Positions 5,709 to 41,631 of a stretch of DNA of 64,000 nt are shown piece after piece. This stretch comes from a virus. The stretch lies in the IMG/VR virus record IMGVR_UViG_3300045988_162375, positions 746-64,745 of that record, one strand, 5' to 3'. Both the position numbers and the translations under genes were made by a program. The notes under the pieces are model-generated. The model was not told the origin of the DNA. It made no database searches and saw only the letters and a list, made by a program, of their open reading frames with translations. The first letter of the stretch is position 1. Every line of letters begins with the position of its first letter.

Positions 5709-6296
5709 TTAATCTTCCTTCTCTTCAACTTCTTGTTCATAAGTAGTTAGTCTTTGATGTTGGATAACATTTTCTTCCAGAGGTTCACTGTTAACTGTTT
5801 CCCAACTTTCTTTTGGAATATCTCCAATTGCATAATCTACTTGAAATCTAAGTAATTTGGATCTATCTGCAAGTTTCCCTTTAAAGAAGAATAGAGGGTT
5901 TAGTTTGTATCTAGATCTACTTACTGCATAGATTAAATGTTTTTTAAGTAAAGCAGATATTGCATTATTGACAGTTCCAAGAGATACATTAATTTCTCCT
6001 GCTCACTTTTCTTTATCTTCCTTAAGAATAGTGATGATGTTTCCTTCATTTGTTGTTCCATTATTCATAGGTACATCTCTTCATATTAATGCCATTATTT
6101 TCATTTGAGTGGCATTATCCAAATTGATGAAAGAACTAATATCATTTAAGTAGACCATAATAAATTCATCATACGTTGAAAGTTTTTTTACTTGACGTAC
6201 TGTTTCTACTACATGAATATTTGTTATTTCACCAGTTGCTTGATCTAGATCATAATGTGTATTTTGATCTTTAATTTCAACTAATCCCATATTCAT
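5709..6296 (-). CDS. RepA_N-like replication initiator / DNA-binding protein, 196 codons with 2 in-frame TGA
   Basis: Track ORF 6081-6296(-) continues in frame through TGA to a TAA at ~5709-5711; residues ...GEINVSLGTVNNAISALLKKHLIYAVSRSRYK... resemble RepA_N wHTH; direct repeats lie immediately 5' of the gene (6297-6480). Confidence 0.4.
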
Positions 6297-6480
6297 TCAT
6301 TTTAATTACTAAACAAAGATAGTAAGATTACTTATATTCACCAAATTTGATGAATATTATTTTCAGAAAAAATTTAAAATTCATCTGAGATGATATTTAT
6401 ATTCATTAATTTTGATGAATTCATTCAGGGAGTGAACATTTTTCATTCAGGGAGTGAATTAAGTATTCGTAGTGAATGAA
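6297..6480. promoter_or_regulatory. Direct-repeat (iteron-like) region upstream of the RepA_N-like gene; candidate origin/operator
   Basis: Tandem TCATTCAGGGAGTGAA x2 (~6423-6460) and TTGATGAAT x2 (~6347, ~6411), AT-rich. Confidence 0.35.
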
Positions 6481-7458
6481 TATTAAAATGGAATTAACCT
6501 CGATTTAGAGGAAATATGAAGCATTTAGGGCTTCCATTTAGATGAGATAAGAAAATTCTCTTCTTATCTTTTCAACAGCATCCAAACTTGAAAATATGTC
6601 AGAGTATTCTGCAATAAATATAACACAATCAGTACTTCCTAGTGACGATAAAAAGTATCCACTTAAAGAGAATTCTACTATAAATTGGAATATGGATATG
6701 TTAATGAGATATTTTGAGGGTGTGAAGAAGATGAAAGGTGCTAGAGGGGACAGTCAAATCCTCCCTTCCTCTCCAGAAACTTTCTCTCTTTCTTAATCTC
6801 AAAATTCATCTCTAATATCCTTCCACATGGTACTTATTCTCAATCCAAATACTAAAGAAGCTACAACTCTCAACCTTTCTGAATTTCAACTCTTTATTGG
6901 AAATCGTCATCTCTCTATAAAAGATCTCTCTGGAGATCTTACCATAGAAAATATTCCAATTAATGAAAATAGGAAATCGAGAAAGCCTCTTCAAGTTTCT
7001 ATTCAGTCATATAAATTACAAATATTCAAATAGCCATGCCTGTAGAAATGATTATTATGTTAGTGGGGCTTGGATTGGGAGGTCATTTTGGCAAAGCCTT
7101 GGAAGATTCTGGTAAAGAGAATTTTACCAAGGATGAAATTCTTTCAATTCATGCATCTTCGATTGCGAAGTTCTGTGAAGATCTCAAAAAGAAACAGCAA
7201 GAAGAGCAGCAGAAAGCCAAGGAAGCAGAGCTTTCGAAATTGGGAATTCTTCCTAAATCTGGAATTTCGTAACAAATAAAATATACGTAAAACATCTACT
7301 ATTAAATAGTAGCCATAATTAATCTACCACAGAGTAGGATCACTTGGTTTAGAATCTCTTAAATGAAAACGCGTAAGTAGTTTTTGAGAAGCTCATAGCA
7401 TCAAGTATGGTTGTGTATTTTTTCTTTTTGAATCTTTTAAGTTTAACAATATCTAAAA

Positions 7459-8214: not shown

Positions 8215-8741
8215 CGGGAACTCGTCTAAGCGAGTCTAAACAGATCTTTAAGCTTAGAGCGTCTCTGGTCTTTATGACCAGAGGGTAGATAGAAGAAATT
8301 TAGATTTATAAAAATTTTAAATTTCTTATAAATTTATTATTATTGTGTTAATATTAACCCACCTAATTATAAATAATATGGAAGAATTTTGAATTCGGAA
8401 ATATAATACTTAAAGGTGGGGCGGAGGATATGGCCAGTTCCCTTGAGACAGTGCCATATTCAAGTATGTTATCTAGTCAATAATGTACTTCAGAGAAGGT
8501 TTTATACGCTCTGTTCCATTGTGCTATCAAGCCTTAACCCGACTTAAACTTAGTCTATGGGACTTTGATCGGTCCCATAGGCTCTTATGTGGTAGTGATT
8601 GCCGCGTTACTTCAATTTTGTTCATAGTGTTATTACTCTCTTCGAAATTGCCACATCTTGCAAGATCTGAGGGTTTGGTTGCAATCCAAGAAGCAGAAGA
8701 AAGAAAATGGTTATAAACTAAGTATTTCAAGCAACAACGTC

Positions 8742-11571: not shown

Positions 11572-11644
11572 AGAGCTATAGTATTTATAGGTAAGTACAC
11601 TACTCTGAGGAGTAGAGATAGAGGTTCAAATCCTCTTAGCTCTC
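11572..11644 (+). tRNA. tRNA-like gene with a non-canonical 6-nt anticodon loop (possible pseudogene)
   Basis: Perfect acceptor AGAGCTA/TAGCTCT and T arm AGAGG-TTCAAAT-CCTCT, but anticodon arm CTACT-CTGAGG-AGTAG has a 6-nt loop. Confidence 0.3.
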
Positions 11645-12205
11645 CAAGACTTTTAAAATTTGTATAATGGAAAAAGTGACACAAAATGTACCTGATACAG
11701 GTTGTACAGATCCTGATGAATTCGTGAATGACCCTTGTATCGAAGCCATAGAGGATGAAGAACTTCTTAACATAGAATAATATGTACATAATAACTTTAA
11801 TTTTAGGAATTGTAGGTGTCGTCCTTCTTGCTTTTGCAATCAGGGAAGATGAAGATGATCGAGCCTTCCCGTTGGGAATACTATCAGTAGTCTCTCTGAT
11901 ATGCTCAGTGATGCTCTGGTGCTATACTGACACCAAGCATGAACGAGAACAACCCTTAACAACAATTTCAACTTTTGTTGAGGAGCATTCTCAATATCTC
12001 TCTCCAACTACAGTGAGAACTATAAGTGCAGCACCTATTCGGAAAATACCTGATGGATGTTTCGTATATAATGTTATTCTGGTTGATCAGGATTCTATGT
12101 ATACGTATTCTGCAGTTCTGGACCCTGAGAACATTGAGGTAGTTAATTTTATTCTCGAAGAATCTATTCCTCGACTCGAAAATCATCAAAATAAAAAAAT
12201 AAACA

Positions 12206-12868
12206 ATGGCAAAAAATCGTCTTTTTGGTTGGATGTTCGTTGAGGACTCCAATAAAGAGTCTGAGGCAGTTAAACCTTGTCCTTCACAGGAAGCGTCTGC
12301 TCCTGCTGCGGTTGCTGTTCCCAGTCCTGTCGTAACTTCTGTGCCTGCTCCTACGATTATGGCATCAGGAGATGTAGATACCAAACTGGTGGAACTCCTG
12401 GAACGCAAGATCAACGAAGCAAATCTTCCTGGTCCTGACTATCTGGAACTTCTCCAGTCTGCGGAACAGATGAAGCAGTATATCCCTGATGAGACTACAC
12501 GTCTCAAAGCTGCTTTTGGTTCCATTCAGGGCATGGATCCTCGGATGACGAAGGATGTCGTTCTGGCATCGATTGACACCTATCTGGGTGTAATTGAAGC
12601 TGAACGAGGGAAAGCAAAGCTTCGCATGGAAAAGCTTCGTAAGGAAACTGTCGAGGATAAGGCAGAAGAGCTGAAGGCAACGAATCTTCGTATCGAGCAG
12701 CTTCGTGAGGAACTGAAAACTCTCACAGACAAGTCAATTGATCTCAATTCCGAAATTCAGAAGAATACGGCAGAGACGACCGCATTTGAAGCTAGAACGA
12801 ATGCGACCATCGACAAGGTTACGAATCGTCTGAACGAGGACAAGGTCCGACTGGCACAAATTCTGTAA
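12206..12868 (+). CDS. hypothetical coiled-coil protein
   Basis: 220 aa, Pro/Ala-rich linker then long heptad-like region; higher GC. Confidence 0.4.
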   Translation: MAKNRLFGWMFVEDSNKESEAVKPCPSQEASAPAAVAVPSPVVTSVPAPTIMASGDVDTKLVELLERKINEANLPGPDYLELLQSAEQMKQYIPDETTRLKAAFGSIQGMDPRMTKDVVLASIDTYLGVIEAERGKAKLRMEKLRKETVEDKAEELKATNLRIEQLREELKTLTDKSIDLNSEIQKNTAETTAFEARTNATIDKVTNRLNEDKVRLAQIL

Positions 12869-12870
12869 GT

Positions 12871-13905
12871 ATGATGCTGCCTGAAGGTTCAAGTCTCTCT
12901 AACTGGGAAAAACCAGGAGGCAAAACTGGTATGGTAGTTTTGGGTTTGTTAGGTGCAGGAGGGTTGATGCTTTTTTATAAAGCTCTTCCTTTCCTGATTA
13001 CTCTGGCATCTAATACACTGTACTTTGGGCTGCTCCTGGGATTAATTGCAGGAATTATCTATCTCCTGTGTGATCCCAAGTTCAGGAAAATCTGCTCTGC
13101 CACTTATTTTATGTTAATGAGAAAGCTGACTGGATTGGTTATTGAAATCGATCCTATTGCTATCGTGGAACAACGTATCCGTGATATGCAGAAAAAGTCA
13201 GCTGACATTAAAAAGGTAATGGGAGATCTCAGAGGTTGTATCATTCGTTCTAAGAACGATATTCAGAACGATACAAGGGAAATGCGTAATTGCATGGATG
13301 AAGCACAAGTGTCTGAGCGTAATGGAAACATTGCAATGGCAACAATTCAAAAGCGCCAAGCACTTCGTCTTAAAGAATCGTTAGATGATCAGTTACTTGC
13401 TCTTAAGAACTCAGAAATGTGGTTTGATAAGCTTAAAAAGCTTGAAGAGTATGCTAATCTGACGATTCAGGATGTTACTAACGAAGTAAATATTCGTAAG
13501 AAAACATTCGAGCGCATTCGTGCCCAGCACAAAGCTTTCAAATCTGTAATGTCTATCGTTAAGGGAGACCCTGACGAATTGGCAATGTTCACTGATGCTA
13601 TGGATTTCATGGCAAAGGATATCTCGGATAAAATCGGAGAGATGGAACATGTCATTGACTCTACTACGGGTATGCTGGCTGACCTGGACGCAAAGAATGG
13701 TGTTGCCAATATGAGGGCAGAAGAATTGTTGGAACGATACAACAAGTCAGGAATTGACAGTCTCTTTAATAAGTTCTCTGATGGTCGTAAGGCTATCGCT
13801 GCACCGAAAGTAGGGGAGTATGTTCAGTTCCAAGAAATTCTCAAAGTCCCCGTAAATGGTAACGAAGCCGCTCCCAAGTCCCTCGACGATTTCTGGGGTG
13901 AGTAA
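12871..13905 (+). CDS. membrane-anchored coiled-coil protein
   Basis: 344 aa; two N-terminal hydrophobic helices then a long charged helical region; adjacent to 12206 and probably operonic. Confidence 0.4.
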   Translation: MMLPEGSSLSNWEKPGGKTGMVVLGLLGAGGLMLFYKALPFLITLASNTLYFGLLLGLIAGIIYLLCDPKFRKICSATYFMLMRKLTGLVIEIDPIAIVEQRIRDMQKKSADIKKVMGDLRGCIIRSKNDIQNDTREMRNCMDEAQVSERNGNIAMATIQKRQALRLKESLDDQLLALKNSEMWFDKLKKLEEYANLTIQDVTNEVNIRKKTFERIRAQHKAFKSVMSIVKGDPDELAMFTDAMDFMAKDISDKIGEMEHVIDSTTGMLADLDAKNGVANMRAEELLERYNKSGIDSLFNKFSDGRKAIAAPKVGEYVQFQEILKVPVNGNEAAPKSLDDFWGE

Positions 13906-14641
13906 ATTCTTTCTGAATAATAGAAATATTGCTATATGTATTCTTCTGAATACTGTAGTGATATTTCTGTTGTCCTTTCATCGATTCCAACATGTCCTTT
14001 TGCCACTAGATGTGGCGTTTACCATATTCTTTATAATAGAGATGATTGTCAAGATTAGATGTCTTGGTAAATTATTCTTTAAGGATAAAGAATGTGTTTT
14101 TGATTTATTAATTGTTGTAGTTTCATCAATCCCATTATTTGGGTTATTCAGTTTAGATTGGATTCAAGTAATGCGATTGACTCGAATATTTAAGAGTCTT
14201 CGATTGTTTGAATTGATTCCTAATTACAAAAAGCTACTCATCAATTTTAGGTTAGTAATTCGAAGTTGCATTGGAATCTTAGTAGGATTATCTATTTTGA
14301 TTTTTCTATTATCAATTATTCTGTCTTCTTTATATGGAAATATAGTTCCAGAGTATTTTGGAAATCCCCTTGAAAGTATTTATTCAGTTTTCCGATTGTT
14401 TTCTATTGAGGGTTGGTATGATATTCCAAATGCTATTGCTGAGCGTAGTTCCTATGTAATGGGATATTTATCTAAGTTTTTCTTATCAGGTATAGTTCTT
14501 GTTTTTGGTATATTCGGAATGGGATTTGTATCATCTATGTTTATTGATGAGGTAACTTCAGATAATAATGATGAAGTTCTACAACGATTAAGTAAGTTAG
14601 AAGAAATTTTAAAGAAAATACAAGAAAATGGCACAACTTAA
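13856..14641 (+). CDS. 6TM voltage-gated cation channel (BacNaV/NaChBac-like) with C-terminal coiled coil
   Basis: Six hydrophobic segments; S4-like helix with basic residues every third position (MRLTRIFKSLRLFEL); pore-like FRLFSIEGWYD resembling the TLESW filter; start may be a later ATG. Confidence 0.5.
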   Translation: MVTKPLPSPSTISGVSKFFLNNRNIAICILLNTVVIFLLSFHRFQHVLLPLDVAFTIFFIIEMIVKIRCLGKLFFKDKECVFDLLIVVVSSIPLFGLFSLDWIQVMRLTRIFKSLRLFELIPNYKKLLINFRLVIRSCIGILVGLSILIFLLSIILSSLYGNIVPEYFGNPLESIYSVFRLFSIEGWYDIPNAIAERSSYVMGYLSKFFLSGIVLVFGIFGMGFVSSMFIDEVTSDNNDEVLQRLSKLEEILKKIQENGTT

Positions 14642-16154
14642 GCCAGGATTCAAAGTAGTCCTGATCATGGTCGCTGTAATTGCAGCATTTTTCGTAATCA
14701 AAGCCGTCGTCCCTTCCTCCTCGTCGTCGGGATCATCCTCTACTTCGGGTCTCGGCGACATCTTCGGAGGAAAACCGACCATCAACATCGGAGTTAACAC
14801 GTATGCGGGGTTTGCTCCCATTGTGTGGATTAATGGTGGTCTTCGTCCCAATGACGAGTCTATCCTGACTAAGGAATATGGCATTCGTGCCAATATCATT
14901 ATCCAAGATGATTTTGTTGCTGGACGTAACGCTTTCCTGAATGGGGATATCGACCTTATTTATTGTACTACGGATGTATTGGCCGTAGAGATGGGTGAAG
15001 GTTCCGCAATGAACAGTGCTAAGTATGTAATGATGCTTAACCGTTCTCAGGGGGCAGATGCAATGGTAGTTACCAAGAATATTCGTACCGTTGCAGATCT
15101 TAAGGGTAAAAAGATTGCAGTAGCTGAAGGAACTGCATCTCATACTCTTCTTCTGAATATTCTTGAAACAAACGGGATCAGTCAGCATGACGTAACACTT
15201 GTGAAAGTTGATAACGGTGGTGCTGCAGCTGACACATTCAAAGCAGGTCAGGTAGATGCTTGTGTTACATGGGCACCTGATGACCAGGCTTGTGTAGATG
15301 CTATTCCTGGTTCGAGAGTCCTCGTTTCAACCAAACATGCAAAAGACCTTGTAACAGATGGTCTTGTAGGAAAGGCAGAGTGGCTGGATAAGAATCATAA
15401 CGATGTTAAAAAACTTATTTCTGCAATTCTGTATGCAAATTCGAAGTTGAATCATGATCCTGCAACTGTAAAGGAAGCATCAAAGATTTTTGCAAAAGCG
15501 TTCGGTACTGACCCTGAGTTTGCTGAAATTGGATGTAGCAATATCTGGTTTGCAACTCTGGGAGATGAAGAGAATTTCTTTGGCATAACTTCTGATTATA
15601 TGGGAATGAAGGCTGAGGAGATCTATTCAAAGATGGCTCGGACCTATGCTAATCTTGGACTTACTAAGAGTCCTCTGGGTTGGCGTAAGGTATCGGATAT
15701 GTCGTTCATCGAGGAGCTTTCCAATGAGGGTACTGTACAAGGCAATCAGGCTCCTCAACCCGCAGTTAAGTTCTCTGCTGTAACATCAGAAGTCAGGGAA
15801 AAACAGGCAATTTCTAATAAGAAGTTGACTATTAATTTCCCTGTCAATGGTGACATCCTCGACAATGATGCTCGAGCTCTTATTGATCGAGAGTTTGTTC
15901 CGATTGCTAAGCAGTTCAACAACGCACGTGTTCGTATTGAAGGTAACACTGACAATACGGGTAATCGTGCGTACAACGAGTCTCTTTCATCTCGACGGGC
16001 TCAGGCTGTAGCTAATTATTTAATTAATGACTACGGTTTTGATCCCAATCGATTTATCATCGTTGGTAACGGTCCTAAGAATGCTATCAATGATGGTGTT
16101 CAGGGTTCCAATATCAACTATCGAACTACTGATTTCATGCTCGTAACTGAGTAG
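14628..16154 (+). CDS. ABC transporter substrate-binding protein (NitT/TauT-type) fused to a C-terminal OmpA-like domain
   Basis: 508 aa; N-terminal TM anchor and Ser-rich linker, SBP-like core, C-terminal NTDNTGNRAYNESLSSRRAQAV OmpA-family motif. Confidence 0.55.
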   Translation: MAQLKPGFKVVLIMVAVIAAFFVIKAVVPSSSSSGSSSTSGLGDIFGGKPTINIGVNTYAGFAPIVWINGGLRPNDESILTKEYGIRANIIIQDDFVAGRNAFLNGDIDLIYCTTDVLAVEMGEGSAMNSAKYVMMLNRSQGADAMVVTKNIRTVADLKGKKIAVAEGTASHTLLLNILETNGISQHDVTLVKVDNGGAAADTFKAGQVDACVTWAPDDQACVDAIPGSRVLVSTKHAKDLVTDGLVGKAEWLDKNHNDVKKLISAILYANSKLNHDPATVKEASKIFAKAFGTDPEFAEIGCSNIWFATLGDEENFFGITSDYMGMKAEEIYSKMARTYANLGLTKSPLGWRKVSDMSFIEELSNEGTVQGNQAPQPAVKFSAVTSEVREKQAISNKKLTINFPVNGDILDNDARALIDREFVPIAKQFNNARVRIEGNTDNTGNRAYNESLSSRRAQAVANYLINDYGFDPNRFIIVGNGPKNAINDGVQGSNINYRTTDFMLVTE

Positions 16155-16155: not shown

Positions 16156-16992
16156 ATGCAGTTGTTCAAAATGGGTGGGACGATTACCCATAAACAAGCA
16201 TTGGCAACAGGTATCATAGGAGCAATAGTTCTGCTGCTTCTATGGTATCTAGTTACCATGTCAGGGGAAATCATTCGTCCTCAGATTTTACCGAATCCTA
16301 TAAATGTGCTCAAGGCATATCCAGATTTAATCTCTAACTCAGCCCTCTTTACCAATACTTGGTATACAGTAAAGCTGAACCTTATGGGATATTTCTATGC
16401 TTTAATCATTGCAATCCCTTTGGGCCTTATTATAGGATTGTTTCCTGTCACAAAAGCGTTGTTTGGTAAGTACTTTGATGCTCTTCGGTATCTTCCTATT
16501 CCTGCAGTGTCTGGTATTTTTATCGCAGCTATTGGCATAGGATTTGATATGAAGGCTAGTTTTCTTGCTTTCGGAATCATCATATACATTCTTCCTGTTG
16601 TTGTTCAACGAGTATCTGAACTTCAGAATCCCGCCAACGATAAGGATTATGTGTATTTACAAACCATTTCAACGTTAGGTGCAACAAACTGGCAGAAATT
16701 TCGATATGTTTATTTTCCTTATGTGATGCAGCGAGTTTCAACCGATGTAATCAATTTAACTGCGATTTCCTATACTTATATAGTAATTGCAGAAACTCTT
16801 AATAAAGAGGGTGGTATCGGTGCACTGATAAATATAATGAGTAGGCAGTCGAGAACTGCAGAAGTTTATGCACTTCTCTTCTTAATTATCGGTATTGGAA
16901 TACTCCAAGATGTCCTTCTAAAGAAATTGGATGTTGTACTTTTTCCTTCAAAGTACAACAAACCATCCATCAAATCCAAAATAATGAAATAA
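16156..16992 (+). CDS. ABC transporter permease (TauC/SsuC-like)
   Basis: 278 aa polytopic membrane protein immediately following the SBP gene. Confidence 0.6.
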   Translation: MQLFKMGGTITHKQALATGIIGAIVLLLLWYLVTMSGEIIRPQILPNPINVLKAYPDLISNSALFTNTWYTVKLNLMGYFYALIIAIPLGLIIGLFPVTKALFGKYFDALRYLPIPAVSGIFIAAIGIGFDMKASFLAFGIIIYILPVVVQRVSELQNPANDKDYVYLQTISTLGATNWQKFRYVYFPYVMQRVSTDVINLTAISYTYIVIAETLNKEGGIGALINIMSRQSRTAEVYALLFLIIGIGILQDVLLKKLDVVLFPSKYNKPSIKSKIMK

Positions 16993-16994: not shown

Positions 16995-17831
16995 ATGGGG
17001 CTCTTTGATGGTTTAACTGGATCCGTTCCAGTTCCCACATCTCGTTATGAGGCCGTGGATGTAATTAACTTAAGAAATCTTAACCAGTCTTTTGATACTC
17101 CTAAAGGAAAGTTCACTCTCTTTAAGGATTTCAGTCTGGATATAAAAGACTTCTCAGGAGAAGGGCAGTTTATCAGTATCTTAGGAAAGAGTGGTTGTGG
17201 TAAATCTCAACTGCTCAAAATCATCTCTGGGCTTACACAGCCAGATTCAGGTGAAGTTCTTGTCTATGGAAAGCCACAGACAGGAAAAATCCCTATGGTA
17301 TTTCAGCAGTATTCTTCATTTCCATGGATGTCAGTTCTTGACAATGTAAAACTTCCGCTTATTCTTCGAGGAGTTTCTGATAAAGAAGCTACAGAGAGGG
17401 CTATGGAAATGATCAAAATTGTAGGTCTGGAAGGTAATGAAACTAAATGGGGTCAGTATCCTGTGTTATCGGGAGGACAGCTTCAACGAGTTTCAATGGC
17501 GCGAGCCCTGGTTGCAGATAACAAAATTCTTTTGTTAGATGAAGCCACTGGTGCATTAGATATTGTTATGAAACGAGAGATTCAGAACACCATTTTGGAT
17601 ATCTATTATAACGCCAAATTCGATCCTACAATCCTCAATGTTACACATAGCATTGAGGAGGCTGTATATCTCTCAAATCGAATTTACATTTTAGCTCCTA
17701 ATCCCTGTAAAGTTCAGGCTGTCATTGATGTTAACTTTGACGGTAGGAGAACGGATGCAATTCGTCAAACTACAGCATTTGCAAATTATGTGAAACAAGT
17801 AGAACAAGTAATGTCAGAAACACATGAGTAA
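16995..17831 (+). CDS. ABC transporter ATP-binding protein
   Basis: Walker A GKSGCGKS, signature LSGGQLQRV, Walker B ILLLDEATGALD. Confidence 0.7.
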   Translation: MGLFDGLTGSVPVPTSRYEAVDVINLRNLNQSFDTPKGKFTLFKDFSLDIKDFSGEGQFISILGKSGCGKSQLLKIISGLTQPDSGEVLVYGKPQTGKIPMVFQQYSSFPWMSVLDNVKLPLILRGVSDKEATERAMEMIKIVGLEGNETKWGQYPVLSGGQLQRVSMARALVADNKILLLDEATGALDIVMKREIQNTILDIYYNAKFDPTILNVTHSIEEAVYLSNRIYILAPNPCKVQAVIDVNFDGRRTDAIRQTTAFANYVKQVEQVMSETHE

Positions 17832-18002
17832 AATCAATTTCAAAGCTTTTCCTATGTATTTCAAGGAGAAGGTCTATGATGCCGAGGGCAATGTAAAGCG
17901 TAACAAAGATGGCGAAATCGTTTACCAGCGCGTACAGCGTATGGTACGTCATAACGCAGCCTACTTTCCTAGCCGAAAGTAAAACGGTTCTTTGAAACTC
18001 TG

Positions 18003-18029
18003 GTCGGAGATTAAACTCTCCGACTTTTA
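18003..18029 (+). terminator. Rho-independent terminator-like hairpin
   Basis: GTCGGAG-ATTAAACT-CTCCGAC followed by TTTTAT, 3' of the ABC operon. Confidence 0.45.
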
Positions 18030-27342: not shown

Positions 27343-27422
27343 GGCCCTGTAAGCAAATTGGTAAAGCTGCTTATATATTCTAGGTTCATAAGTGTGTGGA
27401 GGTTCGAATCCTTCCATGGCCA
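27343..27422 (+). tRNA. tRNA-like gene with a 13-nt anticodon loop (anticodon undetermined)
   Basis: Acceptor GGCCCTG/CATGGCC, U8, D arm AGC-AAATTGGTAA-GCT, stem CTTAT/ATAAG enclosing ATATTCTAGGTTC, T arm GGAGG-TTCGAAT-CCTTC. Confidence 0.3.
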
Positions 27423-28576: not shown

Positions 28577-28648
28577 GAGGTATTGGTGTTAGTGATAGCA
28601 TATGTGACTTCCAATCACAAGGGGAGAGTTTGAATCTCTTATACCTCT
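28577..28648 (+). tRNA. tRNA-Gly(TCC)
   Basis: Acceptor GAGGTAT/ATACCTC, anticodon arm TGTGA-CTTCCAA-TCACA, T-loop TTTGAAT. Confidence 0.75.
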
Positions 28649-31196: not shown

Positions 31197-32810
31197 ATGA
31201 CTCTATTTATCATTCTCGGTGCAGCACTACTGTTAGTGTTGCTCTCAGTAGTGGGAATTCTCTCACGGTACAGAAAATGTCCTTCTGACAAGATTCTTGT
31301 AATCTTTGGTAAGACAGGGGGCGAAAAATCTGCTAAGTGCATTCATGGAGGAGCAGCTTTCGTGGTACCTATCGTACAGGGTTACAGTTTCATGTCACTT
31401 AAACCTTTGCAGTTTGAGTGTAATCTTCAGAAAGCTCTGTCTTCACAGAATATCCGAGTAGATGTTCCAACTACTGTGACTGTAGGTATTTCTACAGAAC
31501 CTGAAGTAATGCAAATGGCTGCAGAGCGATTGCTTGGATTGACTACTGACCAGATTGAAGATCTCGTTAAGGATATTGTATATGGTCAGATGCGTCTAAT
31601 TGTGTCTAATATGACCATTGAAGAGCTGAACTCTGAACGAGACAAGTTCCTGGAAGAAGTGAAGAATGTTGTTGGTGGAGAGCTTCGTAAGATTGGCCTG
31701 CATCTTATCAACGTCAATATCACTGATATCAGGGATGAGGCAGGTTATATCATCGCATTAGGTCAGAAGGACAAAGCAATTGCTCTTAATAAGGCAAATG
31801 TTGAAATCGCTAAGGCTGAAAAGGACGGTGCAACTCAAACTGCAGAGCAGAACAAAATTAAGAACTCTGAAGTTGCTGTAACCCAACGTGAGGAAGCAGT
31901 TGCGGTCGCAGTGGCAAATGCCGAGCGAGATTCCAAGGTTGCAGAAACTCAGCGTACTCGTGATATCAATGTGGCAACTGCTAAAGCAGAAGGTGAGATT
32001 GGTAAAATCGAAGCTGAGAAGACTGTAACAAACAAGAATGCTGAGTTGGAAGTTGTGCGAGCAGATGCTGAAAAGGCTGCAAACACAGCTCGTGTAAAAG
32101 CAGAAGCTGAAGTCGCTAAGGAGAAAGAGCTTGCTCAAGTAGAAGTTGTTAAGGCTGAAGCAAAAGTGCTGCAAGAGCAAGAACTCGCTCAGAAGACTGC
32201 AGAAGAAGCTCGTGCTCAGCGTCAAGAAGCAGCCTTACATGCTGATAAGATTGTACCTGCAGAAATTTCTAAGAAAGAGAGTCTGCTGCGTGCTGAAGCT
32301 TATCAGCTGGAACAGGAGAAAATCGCAGAAACTAATGCTAATAAGACTAAAATCGAAGCTGATGGTAAAGCGCAAGCTGAAGCTCTCAAGGGTGAAGGTG
32401 AGGCTAAAGCCATTACTGCTAAAGGTCTTGCTGAAGCAGAGGTTGTTCGTCAGAAAGGTTTGGCTCAGGCAGAAGCAGAGAAAGCTTCTCTTAAGGCTCA
32501 GGCAGATGGTTTCCGTGAGATGATCGAAGCTGCCAAAACTGATCCTGCGATTGCAATTCAGTTCAAGATGGTTCAAGAAGGAACCTACGAAAACATTGCT
32601 AAGCAACAGGTTGAGGCTTACAAGCACATGAACTTCGGTAATGTGACCATCATGGACACTACGAAGGGTGGAGGCCTCACAAATGTGATGCAAAGCCTTC
32701 TGTCTCAAGTATCCCCCATGCTGAATGTTATGAAAGAAATGAAAATTCCTGGAGTATCAAAGGCATTGGAAGAGAAAACTGAGGATGCTAAATTTCCTGA
32801 AGTTAAGTAA
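31197..32810 (+). CDS. SPFH/band-7 (flotillin-like) protein with long Ala/Glu/Lys-rich coiled coil
   Basis: 537 aa; N-terminal TM, SPFH-like region, ~250-aa EA-repeat coiled coil (AEAEVAKEKELAQVEVVKAEAK...). Confidence 0.6.
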   Translation: MTLFIILGAALLLVLLSVVGILSRYRKCPSDKILVIFGKTGGEKSAKCIHGGAAFVVPIVQGYSFMSLKPLQFECNLQKALSSQNIRVDVPTTVTVGISTEPEVMQMAAERLLGLTTDQIEDLVKDIVYGQMRLIVSNMTIEELNSERDKFLEEVKNVVGGELRKIGLHLINVNITDIRDEAGYIIALGQKDKAIALNKANVEIAKAEKDGATQTAEQNKIKNSEVAVTQREEAVAVAVANAERDSKVAETQRTRDINVATAKAEGEIGKIEAEKTVTNKNAELEVVRADAEKAANTARVKAEAEVAKEKELAQVEVVKAEAKVLQEQELAQKTAEEARAQRQEAALHADKIVPAEISKKESLLRAEAYQLEQEKIAETNANKTKIEADGKAQAEALKGEGEAKAITAKGLAEAEVVRQKGLAQAEAEKASLKAQADGFREMIEAAKTDPAIAIQFKMVQEGTYENIAKQQVEAYKHMNFGNVTIMDTTKGGGLTNVMQSLLSQVSPMLNVMKEMKIPGVSKALEEKTEDAKFPEVK

Positions 32811-33483: not shown

Positions 33484-35175
33484 ATGTTTGAAGCAAAAAA
33501 GAAAACATTATTTGCTGTTGATAGCAGTAAATCGGCATCTAAATCAGCCTTTATTCAGGCAGGATTAAAAACTGCAGCAGAAACCACTACAGGTAACGGT
33601 GGTAAAGCCTATTCCAGTACAGGGGATCCCTTCGTTGACCAGTTTGGTAGTACATCTAAGTACAGAGAGATTCGCCCATTTGCAGAAATTGCAAAAGATT
33701 GTGAAATTCTCTGGGCAGAAAATAAAGAAGATACTGTTAAATTTATCTTTTTCTTGCGAATGATTTGTCGTAAGATTAATGATAAAGAGTATGGTACCAA
33801 AGAAGCACAGAAGGGTTCTGAACTTCGTCATGAAGGTATTATGCGTCTCATCTGGCTGCATATCAAAGATAAAGAAGTGTTCTGGAAGAATGCTTGGTTG
33901 ATTCCCTTAGTGGGTTCTTGGAAAGATCTCTTCGTTATGCTTCGTTATGACTTAGTTTATAACGGCTGGGAACACCGAGTTCTGGATTGGCGCCGTTTTG
34001 CAGATCTGATTACTGCTGGCCTTAGTTCTGATTCCCAAACGAATCTTCTTCGTAAGTATCTTCCTCAGATCAAGGCACATTCCAAGTGTACTACAGTAGA
34101 GGCACAAGCAAATTGTATGATTGCAAAATGGCTGTGTTCAGAACTTTACGGTGCGTCAGGAGCAAAGACAGATGCTGAAAAGTATCAGGTATATCGTTCT
34201 TATGCAAAGATGAAAGCCGCAGGGACAGCACATAGCTGGCAACAGCTTATTTCAAAGCAACGATATACAGAGATTGACTTTGATAAGATTCATGGTCGTG
34301 CCTTAAACCTTCTTGTACACTCCAAGTTCTTAGAGAATCATAATCTCAAAGAGAAGTATCAGGAATGGATAGGAGCTCCAGAGACAAAGAAGGTGAAGTA
34401 CACAGGTTTTGTACATGAGCTCTTTAAACCTATTTGTAACACTGCTCCTTATAATATAGAGCAGCATATCAAAGATACTATTAATAAGCAGTTTATGACT
34501 CTTGTTAATAAGTGTAAGGAAGAGGGCAATACTACAGATCTAATTGTAGTACGTGATACTTCTGGTTCAATGGGTGCAGAAGCAACTGGAACTTCCATGT
34601 CTTGTTACAATGTAGGTAAGGCAATTGCTCTGTATTTCTCTTACTTCTTGAGAGGAAGGTTTCAAAATGCATGGATTGAGTTCAACTCGAAAGCTATGAT
34701 GCATGAGTGGAAAGGAGAAACTCCTCTGGAAAAATGGTTTAATGACCATTCAGGGTACTATGGAAGTACAAACTTTGAGGGTGTTATTAACCTCTTTACT
34801 CAGTTGAAACTTGAAGGTGTTCCAGAAGAGGAATTTCCTAAAGGAATTCTTTGTATCAGTGATTGTGAGTTTGATGCTTCAAGTCTGAATAAGACTTCAG
34901 TTGAAAGAGTTCATGATACATTGACAGCTGCAGGATTTTCTAAAGAGTATGTTGATAATTTTGTCATTTGCCTTTGGAATTTGAGAAATGATTACTACGG
35001 ACATAATGTACAAAATCGTGTTCCATTCCAAACTTATGGTGACGTCAAGAATGTCTACTATATGTCTGGATATTCAGCACAGATTGTATCTTTCTTAAAT
35101 GGGAAGGTGCAGACTACACGGGATCTGTTTGATGAGGCTATGAATCAAGAGATTCTGTCTCTCATTAAGATGTAA
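33484..35175 (+). CDS. vWA-domain protein with N-terminal helical domain (Ro60/TROVE-like or DUF2828-like architecture)
   Basis: 563 aa; C-terminal MIDAS-type motif LIVVRDTSGSMGAEATG; large N-terminal alpha-rich domain. Confidence 0.45.
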   Translation: MFEAKKKTLFAVDSSKSASKSAFIQAGLKTAAETTTGNGGKAYSSTGDPFVDQFGSTSKYREIRPFAEIAKDCEILWAENKEDTVKFIFFLRMICRKINDKEYGTKEAQKGSELRHEGIMRLIWLHIKDKEVFWKNAWLIPLVGSWKDLFVMLRYDLVYNGWEHRVLDWRRFADLITAGLSSDSQTNLLRKYLPQIKAHSKCTTVEAQANCMIAKWLCSELYGASGAKTDAEKYQVYRSYAKMKAAGTAHSWQQLISKQRYTEIDFDKIHGRALNLLVHSKFLENHNLKEKYQEWIGAPETKKVKYTGFVHELFKPICNTAPYNIEQHIKDTINKQFMTLVNKCKEEGNTTDLIVVRDTSGSMGAEATGTSMSCYNVGKAIALYFSYFLRGRFQNAWIEFNSKAMMHEWKGETPLEKWFNDHSGYYGSTNFEGVINLFTQLKLEGVPEEEFPKGILCISDCEFDASSLNKTSVERVHDTLTAAGFSKEYVDNFVICLWNLRNDYYGHNVQNRVPFQTYGDVKNVYYMSGYSAQIVSFLNGKVQTTRDLFDEAMNQEILSLIKM

Positions 35176-36228: not shown

Positions 36229-37713
36229 ATGTTTAAACCTTGTGGAGCTCTACTGACTGATTTTTATAAGCAGGATCACCAGCGTCAATATGACCCTAGC
36301 ATCACTAAGGTAGTTTCTTACTATGTACCTCGTAAAACTAGGATTCCTGAATTTGATAAGGTAGTAGTTTTTGGTATTCAAGCATTTATTGAGGAGTATC
36401 TGATTGAGTACATGAATGAAACTTTCTTTAACCGTCCCTTAGAAGAAGTTATTGCAGAATATGAATTTGTGATTTCTTCTACTATGGGAGCAGACCGTGT
36501 TAACTCGGATAAAATTAAAAACCTTCATGAATTAGGATATCTTCCTATCGAAATTTGGGCACTTCCTGAGGGATATAAAGTAGGAATGAATATCCCCTGT
36601 ATCGAGATTTCTAATACTAATCCAGAATTTGCATGGTGTACTAATTTCATTGAAACCTTGATGCTCTCTGAGCTTTGGTATCCAATGTGTGTTGCAACTG
36701 CTGTAACTAAATATCGTAGTATCGTAAATGATTTTTATTCTAAAACTTCTGATATTTCTGGTCGTTCTGCTATTTCTGAGTTCGGATTTAGAAGTTTAGT
36801 TGGACTTCATGGTGCTATTAAAGCTTCGTGTGGATTTTTGCTCTCTTTTAATAAGACTGCGACTATTCCTGGCATTATGTATGCTTCAAAGTATTATCAT
36901 ACCCCAATGTCTGTAGTAGGTGGAGGTATGGCTTCTACTGAGCACTCCGTAATGTGTAGTTCTGCTGCCATTGATGGGGATGAAAAAGTTATGATTCGAC
37001 GCCTCCTTACTGAGGTCTATCCTAATGGATCATTCTCTATGGTAAGTGATTCCTATGATTACTGGAATGTTGTCGATGAGATTCTCCCATCTCTTAAGGA
37101 AGAAATTCTCAGTAGAAATGGTACTTTGTATGTTCGTGGTGACTCTGGAGATCCTGTAGAAATTGTAACTGAGACGGTTTTTTCTCTTTGGGAGACTTTT
37201 GGAGGCACTGTCAACTCTAAGGGATATAAAGTCTTAGACCCTCATGTTCGAGCTTTATATGGTGATGGCATCACTCAGTTACGTGCAAAACAGATTTATC
37301 AGATTTTGTATGATAAAGGATTCTCTGCAGAGAATGTTGCACTTGGTGCAGGAGGATTTTCCATGCTTTCTTACATGGATGAGTTTGGGAATGTAGATAT
37401 GTTCTCTCGCGATACATTTAATGTAGCAATTAAATGCAGCTATGTAGAACAAACCATTGATGGAAAAACTAAATCTATCATGGTCTACAAAGATCCTAAA
37501 ACGGATTCAGGAATGAAGAAATCCCACAAAGGATGTTGTGCTGTTTTCTACAACCATGTAACTGGTGAGTTTGATTGTGATGAAGGTATGACACTGAAAG
37601 AAGCTCATAATGAGCCTTTCAATTTACTTCGTCCTATCTTTTCAGATGGAAAAATGAGAGAGCAAACTACTCTCACAGAAATTCGTAGAACTCTTTGGAA
37701 CGGGAAATTCTAA
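36229..37713 (+). CDS. NAMPT/NAPRT-family phosphoribosyltransferase (NadV or PncB, or Namat-like)
   Basis: 494 aa; N-terminal LLTDFYKQDHQRQYDP characteristic of the nicotinamide/nicotinate PRTase family. Confidence 0.55.
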   Translation: MFKPCGALLTDFYKQDHQRQYDPSITKVVSYYVPRKTRIPEFDKVVVFGIQAFIEEYLIEYMNETFFNRPLEEVIAEYEFVISSTMGADRVNSDKIKNLHELGYLPIEIWALPEGYKVGMNIPCIEISNTNPEFAWCTNFIETLMLSELWYPMCVATAVTKYRSIVNDFYSKTSDISGRSAISEFGFRSLVGLHGAIKASCGFLLSFNKTATIPGIMYASKYYHTPMSVVGGGMASTEHSVMCSSAAIDGDEKVMIRRLLTEVYPNGSFSMVSDSYDYWNVVDEILPSLKEEILSRNGTLYVRGDSGDPVEIVTETVFSLWETFGGTVNSKGYKVLDPHVRALYGDGITQLRAKQIYQILYDKGFSAENVALGAGGFSMLSYMDEFGNVDMFSRDTFNVAIKCSYVEQTIDGKTKSIMVYKDPKTDSGMKKSHKGCCAVFYNHVTGEFDCDEGMTLKEAHNEPFNLLRPIFSDGKMREQTTLTEIRRTLWNGKF

Positions 37714-38483
37714 TGAAAGAAGTATATGAAGGAATAGTTTCCTTTCTTAAGAATTATCAAGAACGTACCCATGTGAAAGGGTATGTTCTTGGTATTTCTG
37801 GAGGAAAGGATTCTACTGTAGTGGCCAAATTATTGGTAGATTCTATAGGTAAGGAAAATGTATTAGGTGTGCTAATGCCTAATGGTAAGCAAGCTGATAT
37901 TGAGGATAGTTATACAGTATGTGACTTTCTTGATATTAACTATACTGTTGTTAATATAGAAAATGCGTTTGATGAACTTATTCATCAAATTGATGTTTCG
38001 AAAATAACTACAGTGGAAGGGAATGAAGAAAACATTCCAGTAACGGAAAAGGCTCTTACTAATGTTCCTCCTCGTATTCGTATGACTATTCTATATACTA
38101 TAGCTCAGTCTGTAGGATATCGAGTAGCGGGGACTAGTAATGCTTCAGAATTATTTATTGGTTGGGGAACTAAATGGGGAGATTTGGCATCTGATATTAA
38201 TCCTATTTCTCAATTAACATGTTCTGAAGTTATTTCTTTAGGAGACTATATGGGACTCCCATATGATCTTATACATAAGACTCCTGCAGATGGATTAACA
38301 GGAAAGTCTGATGAAGAAAATTTTGGTTTTACATATAAAGAACTTGACACTCTTATTGTAAAGCAGCGAAATCTTACTTGCACAGGTAGAATACAATGTG
38401 CTTTTACTGAACAAGAATTAAAAATCTTAAAATTACATGAAGCTGCGTATCACAAAGATCATGTAATTAAAATACATTATTAA
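37695..38483 (+). CDS. nadE: NH3-dependent NAD+ synthetase (NadE-like PP-loop ATP pyrophosphatase)
   Basis: PP-loop YVLGISGGKDSTVVAKLL; 262 aa. Confidence 0.6.
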   Translation: MEREILMKEVYEGIVSFLKNYQERTHVKGYVLGISGGKDSTVVAKLLVDSIGKENVLGVLMPNGKQADIEDSYTVCDFLDINYTVVNIENAFDELIHQIDVSKITTVEGNEENIPVTEKALTNVPPRIRMTILYTIAQSVGYRVAGTSNASELFIGWGTKWGDLASDINPISQLTCSEVISLGDYMGLPYDLIHKTPADGLTGKSDEENFGFTYKELDTLIVKQRNLTCTGRIQCAFTEQELKILKLHEAAYHKDHVIKIHY

Positions 38484-38484
38484 T

Positions 38485-39375
38485 ATGGGAAGCGGATCAT
38501 GGAGTTCTAACACATATAAAGCTTTTGCTGATAGCTATACTAAAAAATCCAGAGAAGAAATCTTTCATCAAAGATCTCTACACGAAGAAATGGATCTTAC
38601 AAAAAGTAAGACGCATATTCGAGAATCTAGAGATTCTGAGGAACACCCAGAATCTCTTCCAGTTTTCATTGCATTAGATGAAACTGGTTCAATGGGCTCA
38701 ATTCCTGATAAGATGATCAGGGATTATCTTCCGAAGTTAATGGATTCTATTATTGATTCTATTGGAGTTAAACACCCTCAAATTCTTTTTATGGGAGTAG
38801 GAGATCATGAATGTGATTACTGCCCGTGTCAGGTAGGTCAATTCGAATCTTCAACTGTTGCAATTAATCAATGTCTCTCTAAAATCTATTTGGAGGGTCG
38901 TGGTGGAGGTAATAGTGGAGAATCCTACTTACTTCCTTGGATTATTGCAGGAAATCACACGTCAATTGATAGCTGGGAAAAGCGAAAGCAAAAAGGATTC
39001 CTTTTTACAGTTGGTGATGAACCTACTTTGACAAGAATAAGTAGGGGAACTTTGGCATCCCTCACTGGAATGGAGTATGAGCGTGATTATACCTGGCAGG
39101 AGGCTTATGAACTTGCCTGTGAGAAATATCATGTGTTTCATATCCATGTTCGACATGGAAGTGAACATTATGATGAGGTAGTAGCTAAACAAATGAAAGA
39201 AATTCTTAGAGAAAACTTTATTGTGTGTAAACCTGATGAAGTTGTAGAAGCCATTTGTGAAGCTATGGGTAAAACTCTAAAAGGTAGCTCTTCAGTAATT
39301 GAAGAGGTTTCTGCAGAAAAAACTGTAGAAAATACAGAATCAAAACCTAATATATTTGACATACATCGACGATAA
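38485..39375 (+). CDS. hypothetical protein, possible vWA-like fold
   Basis: 296 aa; motif VFIALDETGSMGS resembles a MIDAS variant. Confidence 0.3.
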   Translation: MGSGSWSSNTYKAFADSYTKKSREEIFHQRSLHEEMDLTKSKTHIRESRDSEEHPESLPVFIALDETGSMGSIPDKMIRDYLPKLMDSIIDSIGVKHPQILFMGVGDHECDYCPCQVGQFESSTVAINQCLSKIYLEGRGGGNSGESYLLPWIIAGNHTSIDSWEKRKQKGFLFTVGDEPTLTRISRGTLASLTGMEYERDYTWQEAYELACEKYHVFHIHVRHGSEHYDEVVAKQMKEILRENFIVCKPDEVVEAICEAMGKTLKGSSSVIEEVSAEKTVENTESKPNIFDIHRR

Positions 39376-40469
39376 TGTATAATATTGTAGTGGGTTGTAC
39401 GTTTGGCGACGAGGGTAAGGGTCAAGTGACTCATGCCCTTTGTTGCGACGCTAAAAGAAAGCGTTTAAAACCTCTGGTTGTTAGATTTTCTGGAGGGCAT
39501 CAAGCAGGGCACACAGTAACTACTTCATCTGGAACAATGCATATATTTTCTTGCTTTGGATCTGGAACATTTGCTGAAGCACCTACCTATTGGATGAAGC
39601 AATGTGTTATGGATCCACTACAATGGATGCGGGAACGAGAGGAGTTGGATTTCTTAGGATGTAATATCCCTATCCAATATTTTGATCCATATGTACAAGT
39701 AACAACTCCTTTTGACGTAATGCTGAATTCTGAAAGGAGTAAAGGTTTTACAGTAGGAAAAGGGATATGGGAGACTGTTCAGAGACAAAGAGAAGGACTA
39801 GCTTTATATGTAAAAGATTTAGCTTTTCCTCAAGTTGTAAAAATGAAGCTCCGATTAATTAGAGAATGGGCGGAAGATAGACTCCAGTTTAAGGAAACTT
39901 ATTCAAGATTTGCTCATGTTTTCGATAACTTAGATTCTTTAGTACATACTTATTGTAAGATTTTTTATCCCAATATAGTATTGGAGGATACGTTATCTAA
40001 ATTAGCATGGAAAGAAAAGACTTCTGTGATATTTGAGGGTTCTCAAGGAGTACTTTTGGACCCTAATATTGGATTTTCACATGAATATACTACCCCACTT
40101 CCATGTTGTCCATCGTGGGACAATCTCCCATTCTTTTTAAGTGATGATCAACTAATATTTAATTTTGTATATAGATCTTATTTAACAAGACATGGTAAAG
40201 GGCCTGTTGGAGGTTCTATATTCAAGGAGATTAATAATCCTTATGAAACAAATTTAAATAATCCTTTTCAAGGGGAATTTCAAACTTATGAATTCAATAA
40301 GGAATTAGTCTTGTATGGAATTGATCATGTTAAATCACACTTTAATCCTGAATATAAGGTAAGGTTGATTGAAACATGTTGTGACATATGTGCAGGACAT
40401 GACTTAGGAATCCCTTATAATTACTCTATCAAAACCTGCAAAAAGAATTTTGACTCTGTATGCAAATAA
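39375..40469 (+). CDS. Adenylosuccinate synthetase homolog, short form (PurA-like, or possibly PurZ-like)
   Basis: N-terminal VGCTFGDEGKGQV and VVRFSGGHQAGHTV match the PurA P-loop/GDP-binding signatures; 364 aa, shorter than bacterial PurA (~430 aa). Confidence 0.55.
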   Translation: MYNIVVGCTFGDEGKGQVTHALCCDAKRKRLKPLVVRFSGGHQAGHTVTTSSGTMHIFSCFGSGTFAEAPTYWMKQCVMDPLQWMREREELDFLGCNIPIQYFDPYVQVTTPFDVMLNSERSKGFTVGKGIWETVQRQREGLALYVKDLAFPQVVKMKLRLIREWAEDRLQFKETYSRFAHVFDNLDSLVHTYCKIFYPNIVLEDTLSKLAWKEKTSVIFEGSQGVLLDPNIGFSHEYTTPLPCCPSWDNLPFFLSDDQLIFNFVYRSYLTRHGKGPVGGSIFKEINNPYETNLNNPFQGEFQTYEFNKELVLYGIDHVKSHFNPEYKVRLIETCCDICAGHDLGIPYNYSIKTCKKNFDSVCK

Positions 40470-41281: not shown

Positions 41282-41624
41282 ATTTAATGAAATTCTGAGT
41301 GCTACTGGAACTGCGGTACTCAAGAAACGTGCTGAAATCATCAATGCTGATGCCCGCGAAGCAGCTAAGGATCAGGTTAATCTCATTGAGAAAGAGATTC
41401 GTCAGATTAAGTCCAAGATTATGAATCTGGAGGATCTGTCGATTAAATCGACCGAATCACTGGTTGTAGGTACGGATTTTAAGGCAGATGAGTGGGTAAC
41501 TCAGATGTTCAAGCTTCGTGATGACTTGCGCAACGCTGAAATCTGTCTGGAAATTGCTCAGAATATTTATAATGAGTATTTCACGGAACTTCCTGAAGTA
41601 GACTGTGATAAGAAAGCAGAATAG
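41274..41624 (+). CDS. hypothetical coiled-coil protein
   Basis: 116 aa. Confidence 0.3.
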   Translation: MNKFNEILSATGTAVLKKRAEIINADAREAAKDQVNLIEKEIRQIKSKIMNLEDLSIKSTESLVVGTDFKADEWVTQMFKLRDDLRNAEICLEIAQNIYNEYFTELPEVDCDKKAE

Positions 41625-41631
41625 CTTCATA

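Follow-up and report, generated by a model that had tools for sequence, protein, structure and literature searches.

A voltage-gated cation channel gene with a CavMr-type selectivity filter in a large phage that probably infects Bacteroidales

We describe a gene for a voltage-gated cation channel in a 64,000-nt stretch of viral DNA (positions 746 to 64,745 of the IMG/VR record IMGVR_UViG_3300045988_162375), which we refer to throughout as the window. The gene is an intact open reading frame (ORF) for a protein of 261 amino acids (aa) that is a single-domain member of the BacNaV superfamily with a complete voltage sensor. By analogy with the bacterial calcium channel CavMr, the protein is of the CavMr type and probably prefers Ca2+, rather than being a canonical sodium channel. 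We think it reasonably likely that this is a functional, host-derived accessory gene of a phage of ~175 kb, and that its product is a voltage-gated, Ca2+-preferring channel that reshapes the ion balance and membrane potential of the host during takeover.

The protein is a single-domain member of the BacNaV superfamily

The ORF had been proposed, with exactly the coordinates given in Table 1, to encode a phage six-transmembrane (6TM) voltage-gated cation channel resembling BacNaV proteins. The Pfam profile Ion_trans (PF00520), suggested at the time as a check, matches residues 25-220 well above its cut-off (E 2e-20; 73.5 bits against a cut-off of 25), and a hydropathy scan gave five strongly hydrophobic segments (S1, S2, S3, S5 and S6), an amphipathic, charged S4 and a pore loop, in 6TM order, which is the hydropathy pattern that had been claimed. 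The protein thus has both the Ion_trans match and the channel topology whose absence the original prediction had named as a refutation. Comparison with all PDB chains using phmmer returned exclusively voltage-gated channels, led by NavAb chimeras, NavMs, NaChBac and NavAb (E 7e-17 to 1e-13) and followed by domains of eukaryotic Nav channels. An AlphaFold2 (AF2) model, built from an alignment of 74 homologues, has a pLDDT of 87.2, with helices for S1-S6, P1 and P2. Foldseek searches of PDB with this model found NavAb, CavAb, NavMs and a CatSper subunit (E ~1e-7 to 1e-5, probability 1.0); the top 30 matches are chains of NavAb, CavAb or NavMs, or NavAb chimeras, and the CatSper complex enters at rank 33. 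TM-scores are 0.54-0.75, and the alignments to BacNaV structures span 216-274 columns. The likeness to BacNaV channels that had been suggested is therefore seen in both sequence and fold, with NavAb, NavMs, NaChBac and CavAb as the best PDB matches. Indeed, the protein has the composition of a BacNaV channel, with one 6TM domain, an S1-S4 sensor and an S5-P-S6 pore, in 261 aa where ~230-290 aa would be expected.

We considered two alternatives to the gene model and rejected both. A GTG start at 13898 is disfavoured, since that codon encodes Ile in the related locus L014, whereas the ATG at 13856 is kept. Recoding of stop codons was set aside because no suppressor tRNA was found in the window and its ORFs are intact under genetic code 11.

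The voltage sensor is complete

The S4 helix reads R107-L-T-R110-I-F-K113-S-L-R116, in agreement with the claim of an Arg or Lys at every third position. Shuffling the channel protein reproduces such a run of four basic residues, at a spacing of three, in only 1.2% of cases, and in the phmmer alignment to PDB the four S4 charges align with the four arginines (R1-R4) of NavMs. The charge-transfer centre is present too: F59-x-x-E62 and K66 align with S2 of NavMs, and D83 aligns with the acidic residue of its S3. Together with the Ion_trans match, the intact S4 and charge-transfer centre bear out the assignment to 6TM voltage-gated cation channels. Across the 74-homologue alignment, F59, E62, D83, R107, R110, E185 and W187 are invariant, and K66, G186 and Y188 are conserved at 90% or more.

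In the AF2 monomer model a single unbroken helix, residues 200-259, runs from S6 into the C-terminus, and in the tail VLQRLSKLEEILKKIQ, which follows the polar neck, hydrophobic residues recur at a 3-4 spacing for about two heptads. Of the C-terminal coiled coil that had been predicted, the heptad pattern thus exists, but the coil is short. Just past S6 (window 14546-14572), D231 and D236-N237-N238-D239 are invariant or nearly so across the 74 homologues, phage and bacterial. In a tetramer, D231, D236 and D239 would surround the cytoplasmic mouth as an acidic ring; one possibility is that these conserved residues are a site for divalent cations.

The selectivity filter resembles that of CavMr

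The pore loop had been described as TLESW-like, which does not hold: the loop reads F-S-I-E-G-W-Y-D, in which E and W alone remain from the canonical sodium filter. Set against the pore signature F-x-x-x-T-x-E-x-W, the channel reads F179-R-L-F-S183-I-E185-G-W187, the sole change being Thr to Ser at a position where relatives alternate between the two, and nearly every homologue that retains the pore, whether phage or bacterial, has [ST][IV]EGWY[DE]. CavMr, from Meiothermus ruber, is a calcium channel native to a bacterium; its filter reads TLEGWVD, and it belongs to an 'ancestor-like' group of BacNaV channels, AnclNav (Shimomura et al., 2020; PMC7041947). Gly4 of CavMr is a key determinant of Ca2+ selectivity: the permeability ratio of Ca2+ to Na+ (PCa/PNa) is ~12 in the G4S mutant, which also admits K+ and Cs+, and ~8 in G4D, and the D4G substitution in NavPp raises this ratio from 0.3 to 41 (Shimomura et al., 2020; PMC7041947). 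Val6 contributes as well (PCa/PNa 40 in V6T), Asp7 is dispensable (PCa/PNa 144 in D7M, with Gly4 retained), and both CatSper and domains I and III of animal Cav channels conserve Gly4 (Shimomura et al., 2020; PMC7041947). In the phage protein position 4 is G186, nearly invariant in the family, and position 7 is D189, which is D or E in homologues. Because SIEGWYD has both the Gly4 and the acidic position 7 of CavMr, the permeant ion would most likely be Ca2+ (with Na+), not Na+ alone; as judged from its sequence, the filter argues against Na+ selectivity.

The gene is phage-borne and under purifying selection

That the channel is phage-encoded, as originally claimed, is supported by the content and gene order of the window and by viral relatives in IMG/VR. 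ARAGORN identified 24 tRNA genes, all on the + strand; Rfam identified 22 tRNAs, two of which (27343-27422 and 28577-28648) are beyond the ARAGORN set. Of the 44 ORFs that reach 150 aa or more, 38 are likewise on the + strand. PHROG matches include a DnaB-like helicase, a primase, Sak4 and a UvsX-like recombinase, as well as the metabolic proteins NAMPT, NAD synthetase, ribose-phosphate pyrophosphokinase and an adenylosuccinate-synthetase-like enzyme. The channel gene itself lies in a tRNA-rich region with genes for NAD salvage and nucleotide metabolism, with DNA-replication genes also present in the window. An identical channel protein is encoded on at least 23 contigs from many samples, the largest of 173.7 and 175.4 kb (the logan contigs SRR12234540_380 and ERR9880717_660 are two examples of ~175 kb), and nine uncultivated viral genomes in IMG/VR, of 35-178 kb, carry channel copies that are 89-98% identical; viral contigs in IMG/VR that are nearly identical to the window measure 100-178 kb. 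The window is most likely part of a large phage genome (~175 kb), the host most likely being Prevotella or another member of the Bacteroidales.

The tRNA genes (at least 24) span window positions 8742-49602 on the + strand, scattered among small ORFs; 19 amino-acid specificities could be read, with none for Gly or Val, and neither ARAGORN nor Rfam found a suppressor tRNA. One tRNA-like gene, at 11572-11645 (+), lies just upstream of the channel operon; its anticodon was unreadable to ARAGORN ('ga'), and it scores 49 bits against the Rfam tRNA model.

Among intact channel copies, the ratio of nonsynonymous to synonymous substitution rates (dN/dS) is 0.06-0.23, and is 0.084 at a dS of 0.68. The substitutions spare S4, the filter and the charge-transfer residues. 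We conclude that the channel gene is under purifying selection. We did not count shortened protein clusters as pseudogenes, because cluster sizes mix fragments with full-length proteins and such counts are unreliable; instead, three cases were checked at the DNA level.

Origin, distribution and probable host

We looked for cellular relatives of the channel in 185,579 species genomes, at least 556 of which have them, and examined the best 80. These 80 are 31-42% identical to the phage protein and come mostly from Prevotella, Paludibacteraceae, Dysgonomonas and other Bacteroidales of the rumen and gut. The chromosomal homologues, which are labelled 'ion transporter' proteins, have in common with the phage channel their length, the [ST][IV]EGWY[DE] filter and the DNND neck; they differ in sequence, with no more than 42% identity among the best matches, and the phage copies stand apart from most of them in a tree. 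These proteins are probably the source family of the phage channel. A neighbour-joining tree places all the phage copies in one group, beside a small branch from Prevotella and Dysgonomonas; we regard this grouping as tentative because the tree lacks support values. The chromosomal homologues stand alone among housekeeping genes (for example RecR, ThyA/DHFR, peptidase S46 and a major facilitator superfamily transporter), and we dropped their native context as a hint to function because these neighbours are unrelated. The host of the phage is probably Prevotella or another member of the Bacteroidales, since the closest cellular homologues are found there and the importer genes next to the channel, described below, are 53-57% identical to those of Prevotella Lak megaphages.

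The channel gene has a GC content of 30.8% (25% at third codon positions), as compared to 42-47% for the flanking coiled-coil genes and 43% for the gene encoding the binding protein. This difference suggests that the channel gene was acquired separately, possibly from a more AT-rich phage lineage. Divergent copies (43-53% identical) are intact in at least one other clade of jumbo phages. IMG/VR contigs of 215-380 kb from this second clade carry channel copies that are 49-50% identical, in the gene order ClpX-like, thioredoxin, deoxynucleoside monophosphate (dNMP) kinase, channel, NUDIX, tail-fibre-like protein, ClpB. The sequence of one of its members (L017), read by eye, looks AT-rich. A third phage-like context was found at locus L108.

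The description of such channels as rare in phages is supported by all the collections we searched. PHROGs has no family for the protein, tblastn matched it to none of the 50,697 phage genomes deposited in INPHARED, and BFVD offers no structural match. These negative results speak to the rarity of the channel, and do not cast doubt on the gene. Among 2.9 million IMG/VR contigs, a motif scan that used the family alignment led to just 21 confirmed loci, most of which belong to the two phage clades. A full-text literature search for phages with a BacNaV, a voltage-gated channel or PF00520 gave no relevant paper. PADLOC did not match the channel to any defence system, and its matches to the neighbouring genes are trivial (MotB/OmpA and ABC ATPase).

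The channel gene lies within a membrane module common to Lak megaphages

Between 12206 and 17982 all genes point in one direction and lie close together (Table 1). They likely form an operon that ends at a terminator-like hairpin, just past which, at 18031, is a gene for tRNA-Glu. A scan for sigma-70 promoters found sites no more frequently than in shuffled sequences. Both genes upstream of the channel had been described as encoding coiled-coil, membrane-associated proteins. Membrane helices are predicted for the 344-aa protein alone: its AF2 model (pLDDT 69.5) has two long helices (residues 17-92) before the coiled coil. The sequence of the 220-aa protein, when read by eye, has no long hydrophobic stretch. 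Twelve of the 13 best Foldseek matches to the 344-aa protein, obtained with a model of that pLDDT, are Vipp1 or PspA (E 4e-4 to 5e-2). Sequence comparisons gave weaker signals: the Pfam PspA_IM30 match (E 0.013, 15.6 bits) is below the cut-off of 33.9, Vipp1 proteins are the only phmmer matches in PDB, at E 0.2-0.5 over residues 88-283, and a family profile run against PDB found generic coiled coils alone, and not PspA. On fold evidence, then, we tentatively describe this protein as Vipp1/PspA-like. It has many homologues at 40-50% identity that are annotated as 'hypothetical'; the labels on a few of these are Bacteroidia or Candidatus Azobacteroides.

An ABC transporter had been noted downstream of the channel gene, and it is indeed there, with a binding protein, a permease and an ATPase. 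The importer is complete, and NCBIfam matches below cut-off would place it among importers of the sulfonate/taurine/nitrate type. The binding protein carries a fused OmpA-like domain (Pfam NMT1, NMT1_2 and OmpA; NCBIfam SsuA_fam below cut-off; phrog_25518, E 5e-55), and this fusion is 53-57% identical to counterparts in all 15 records of Prevotella Lak megaphages (the counterpart region in locus L106 is 5839-7428).

Comparison with the Lak-A2 module shows a common order, namely a coiled-coil protein (220 aa here, 231 aa in Lak-A2), a Vipp1-like protein (344 and 354 aa, 38% identical), the binding protein-OmpA fusion, permease and ATPase, with 31-57% identity overall. By contrast, Lak phages lack the channel: Lak-A2 has an unrelated ORF of 109 aa at the position of the channel gene, and an extra ORF of 150 aa ahead of the permease. 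Since Lak-A2 has the same order with an unrelated ORF in place of the channel, the module is older than the channel, which is a clade-specific insertion. We also considered whether the channel and the ABC importer are obligatorily coupled, and rejected this, because each occurs without the other: the module in Lak-A2, the channel in the second phage clade.

Other genes in the window

Elsewhere in the window there is a Pistol self-cleaving ribozyme (Rfam RF02679) at 8220-8290 (+), a full-length match with a score of 73 bits against a gathering score of 34.5. A flotillin/SPFH protein is encoded at 31197-32810 (+) (Pfam Band_7, E 1e-26; NCBIfam FloT-like, E 6e-44, below cut-off); this is another membrane-organising gene in the genome that bears the channel. 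A Ro60/TROVE-like RNA-binding protein is encoded at 33484-35175 (+) (phrog_850, E 3e-32; DUF7788/DUF2828), and no Y RNA was found in the window at Rfam gathering thresholds. A block of genes for NAD and nucleotide metabolism occupies 36229-42986 (+; members in Table 1); possible roles are the reconstitution of NAD+ against host defence, and the synthesis of a modified purine.

Table 1. Positions of the channel gene, its parts and other features in the window
Feature	Position	Strand	Evidence or remarks
Voltage-gated cation channel gene (BacNaV superfamily, CavMr-type filter), single-domain, 261 aa	13856-14641	+	ORF, ATG start
Voltage-sensor domain S1-S4 (aa 22-120)	13919-14215	+	AF2 helices; invariant residues; NavMs alignment
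Sensor segments: S1 22-39; S2 42-70 with F59/E62/K66; S3 78-95 with D83; S4 100-120 (aa)			AF2 model
S4 gating charges R107, R110, K113, R116 (RLTRIFKSLR)	14174-14203	+	Motif at residue 107; NavMs RxxRxxRxxR alignment
Pore domain	14225-14545	+	AF2 secondary structure, hydropathy, Foldseek alignment
Pore segments: S4-S5 linker and S5 124-160; P1 helix 171-181; filter; P2 helix 184-197; S6 200-230 (aa)			
Selectivity filter S183-I-E-G-W-Y-D189	14402-14422	+	Sequence; homologue motif; CavMr comparison
Cytoplasmic neck (D231...D236-N237-N238-D239), then short heptad helix aa 240-259	14546-14632	+	Invariant columns, heptad spacing, model
Coiled-coil protein of 220 aa; its gene opens the module common to Lak phages	12206-12868	+	ORF; weak coiled-coil Pfam matches alone; 31% identical Lak-A2 counterpart, same position
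344-aa protein, N-terminal long helices and long coiled coil, tentatively Vipp1/PspA (ESCRT-III)-like	12871-13905	+	50-nt overlap with channel gene
Substrate-binding protein (NMT1/SsuA-type) fused to OmpA-like peptidoglycan-binding domain	14628-16154	+	14-nt overlap with channel gene
ABC importer permease	16156-16992	+	Pfam BPD_transp_1; NCBIfam SaoP/TauC-like below cut-off; 53% identity to Lak-A2
ABC importer ATPase	16995-17831	+	Pfam ABC_tran E 2.5e-27; phrog_293; 53% identity to Lak-A2
Last small ORF of the gene stretch	17824-17982	+	
Terminator-like hairpin, nine-pair stem and T-rich tail, TTTATGGT	18002-18025	+	After ORF 17824-17982
NAMPT	36229-37713	+	
NAD synthase	37695-38483	+	
Adenylosuccinate-synthetase-like enzyme (PurZ-like)	39375-40469	+	phrog_1211
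Ribose-phosphate pyrophosphokinase	40460-41281	+	
IMPDH/GMP reductase	41925-42986	+	

Discussion

We propose that four 261-aa 6TM subunits would assemble in the cytoplasmic membrane of the host, as suggested by homology with NavAb, NavMs and NaChBac, with S1-S4 acting as the voltage sensor, S5-P-S6 forming the pore, and the cytoplasmic neck and short helical bundle holding the tetramer together. Because bacterial resting potentials are strongly negative, such a channel would be closed in an energised cell; it would open on depolarisation, with cations, preferentially Ca2+ or both Ca2+ and Na+, flowing inward. The channel may act beside a membrane-scaffolding protein (tentatively Vipp1/PspA-like) and an ATP-driven importer, and if expressed during host takeover it would alter the ion balance and membrane potential of the infected cell, which could benefit the phage. 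We do not think that it acts from the virion or as a lysis device.

Several observations weigh against this proposal. Some relatives carry damaged copies: in locus L020 (5460-5983) the channel gene has an internal deletion of 225 nt, in L103 (1501-2100) there is an out-of-frame deletion of 92 nt after the filter, with 7 nt of microhomology, and in L104/L105 (L104 1501-2019) the gene call is shortened to 172 aa on an indel-rich copy of 85% identity; in L103 and L104 the call for the binding-protein gene is extended upstream. The channel gene is thus dispensable in some lineages. Ca2+ preference is drawn by analogy from one characterised relative, CavMr. Moreover, CavMr needs Val6 besides Gly4 for the highest Ca2+ selectivity; the phage channel has Tyr at position 6 (Y188) and Ser at position 1, so the filter does not fix the degree of any Ca2+ preference. 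No hallmark structural gene (capsid, portal or terminase) was found within the 64-kb window. Lastly, the channel is not tied to its neighbours, given the 109-aa ORF at its position in Lak-A2 and the dNMP kinase and NUDIX genes that flank it in the second clade, and its context therefore says little about its role. Since the gene is under purifying selection where intact and has been lost in some lineages, it is useful but not essential, as expected of an accessory gene.

Alternative roles for a working channel differ in the ion it passes and in the event to which it responds. The original prediction implied a classical sodium-selective BacNaV, with depolarisation-activated Na+ entry short-circuiting the sodium-motive force of the host. 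Bacteroidales depend heavily on Na+ gradients, sodium channels lead the PDB matches, the T-x-E-x-W core keeps its E185 and W187, and at position 6 the channel lacks the Val on which the highest Ca2+ selectivity of CavMr depends. However, PDB lacks a CavMr-type structure that could outrank the sodium channels, position 4 is Gly instead of the canonical Ser, position 7 is Asp, and the substitutions in CavMr (G4S) and NavPp (D4G) described above show PCa/PNa falling when Ser replaces Gly4 and rising when Gly is introduced; we therefore consider sodium selectivity unlikely, albeit the alternative to be taken most seriously. Depolarisation-activated gating is the defining behaviour of BacNaV-type channels. 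The intact sensor fits such gating, and that some lineages have lost the gene agrees with a competitive function that is not essential; both would suit a device for lysis timing or superinfection that stays closed while the cell is energised, opens at the first depolarisation, whether from holin triggering, DNA injection by a second phage or an abortive-infection effector of the host, and amplifies the collapse. We regard this as improbable, since the gene does not adjoin endolysin or holin genes but lies in a tRNA-rich region with metabolic genes, PADLOC gave no match, and the neighbours in the second clade are a dNMP kinase and a NUDIX protein. A further idea, rather unlikely in our view, is that the channel is an element of excitability: a Ca2+ channel gated by depolarisation, through which a drop in membrane voltage becomes a Ca2+ signal for a decision by the phage. 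The drop could come from a superinfecting phage, an abortive-infection pore of the host or the phage's own programme, and the decision could be to speed up or abort the cycle, or to seal the membrane with the Vipp1-like partner. If this were true, no virus would have been known to encode a voltage-gated calcium channel before this one, and the protein would give direct evidence of electrical and Ca2+ signalling in the conflict between phages and bacteria.

It is also conceivable that the gene does nothing for the phage, or that it is not a phage gene. A decaying passenger gene (moron) without function could account for the deleted or frameshifted copies in L020, L103 and L104/L105, for the many shortened protein clusters among close relatives, and for the GC content of 31% between flanks of 42-47%, which suggests separate acquisition. 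Decay is hard to reconcile with a dN/dS of 0.06-0.23 over intact copies up to a dS of 0.68, with functional residues that are all invariant, with an identical protein in many samples, and with intact copies of 43-53% identity in at least one other jumbo-phage clade; this explanation is already disfavoured, and we judge it very improbable. Equally, the lack of capsid, portal and terminase genes in 64 kb, and the existence of channel homologues on Bacteroidales chromosomes, might suggest that the window is a bacterial chromosome or mis-binned fragment, with the channel an ordinary host gene. Set against this are the tRNA genes amid small ORFs on one strand, the PHROG replication and NAD-salvage genes, relatives entered as viral genomes in IMG/VR, an adjoining module common to Lak megaphages, and the best cellular homologue, which is 42% identical and lies amid housekeeping genes (RecR, ThyA, DHFR and DPP7). 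A bacterial origin of the window is so poorly supported as to be barely credible.

The superfamily to which the channel belongs is known; what is new is a virus-encoded channel with a full voltage sensor and a Cav-like filter. Since purifying selection has kept the gene, with its sensor and calcium-type pore, in two or more lineages of large phages of the gut, we infer that control of host membrane potential or of Ca2+ entry pays in Prevotella-like anaerobes. For gut phage biology, ion flux would join the host functions that large phages reprogramme, and the channel is linked here to a membrane module (tentatively a Vipp1-like protein, and an ABC importer) that is common to Lak megaphages. For channel biophysics, the family offers compact natural proteins with a Gly4 filter, in many divergent copies, Gly4 being common to domains I and III of animal Cav channels.

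Compared with NavAb, NavMs and NaChBac, the phage channel has the same four S4 charges, the F/E/D charge-transfer centre, the P1-filter-P2 pore architecture and a C-terminal helix that may likewise form a bundle. It is just 20-25% identical to them, and its invariant D...DNND neck motif is a feature of its own family; its filter is SIEGWYD where they have TLESWSM or TLESWAS. With CavMr it has in common a single-domain 6TM voltage-gated architecture and, in the filter (TLEGWVD in CavMr), Glu3, Gly4, Trp5 and an acidic position 7. It differs in having Ser1, Ile2 and Tyr6 in place of Thr1, Leu2 and Val6, and in being encoded by a phage and not by a bacterium; we liken the two by their filter residues.

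To our knowledge, virus-encoded channels known to date are pore-only K+ channels or small viroporins. Kcv of chloroviruses is a pore-only K+ channel with two transmembrane segments and no voltage sensor. A catalogue of viral transport proteins lists K+ channel-like proteins for some phages, and the word 'voltage' is absent from it (Greiner et al., 2018; PMC6163359). As with Kcv and those phage proteins, a virus carries a P-loop cation channel, here probably tetrameric, that would act on the membrane of its host; unlike Kcv, the channel described here has a full voltage sensor and a Cav-like filter.

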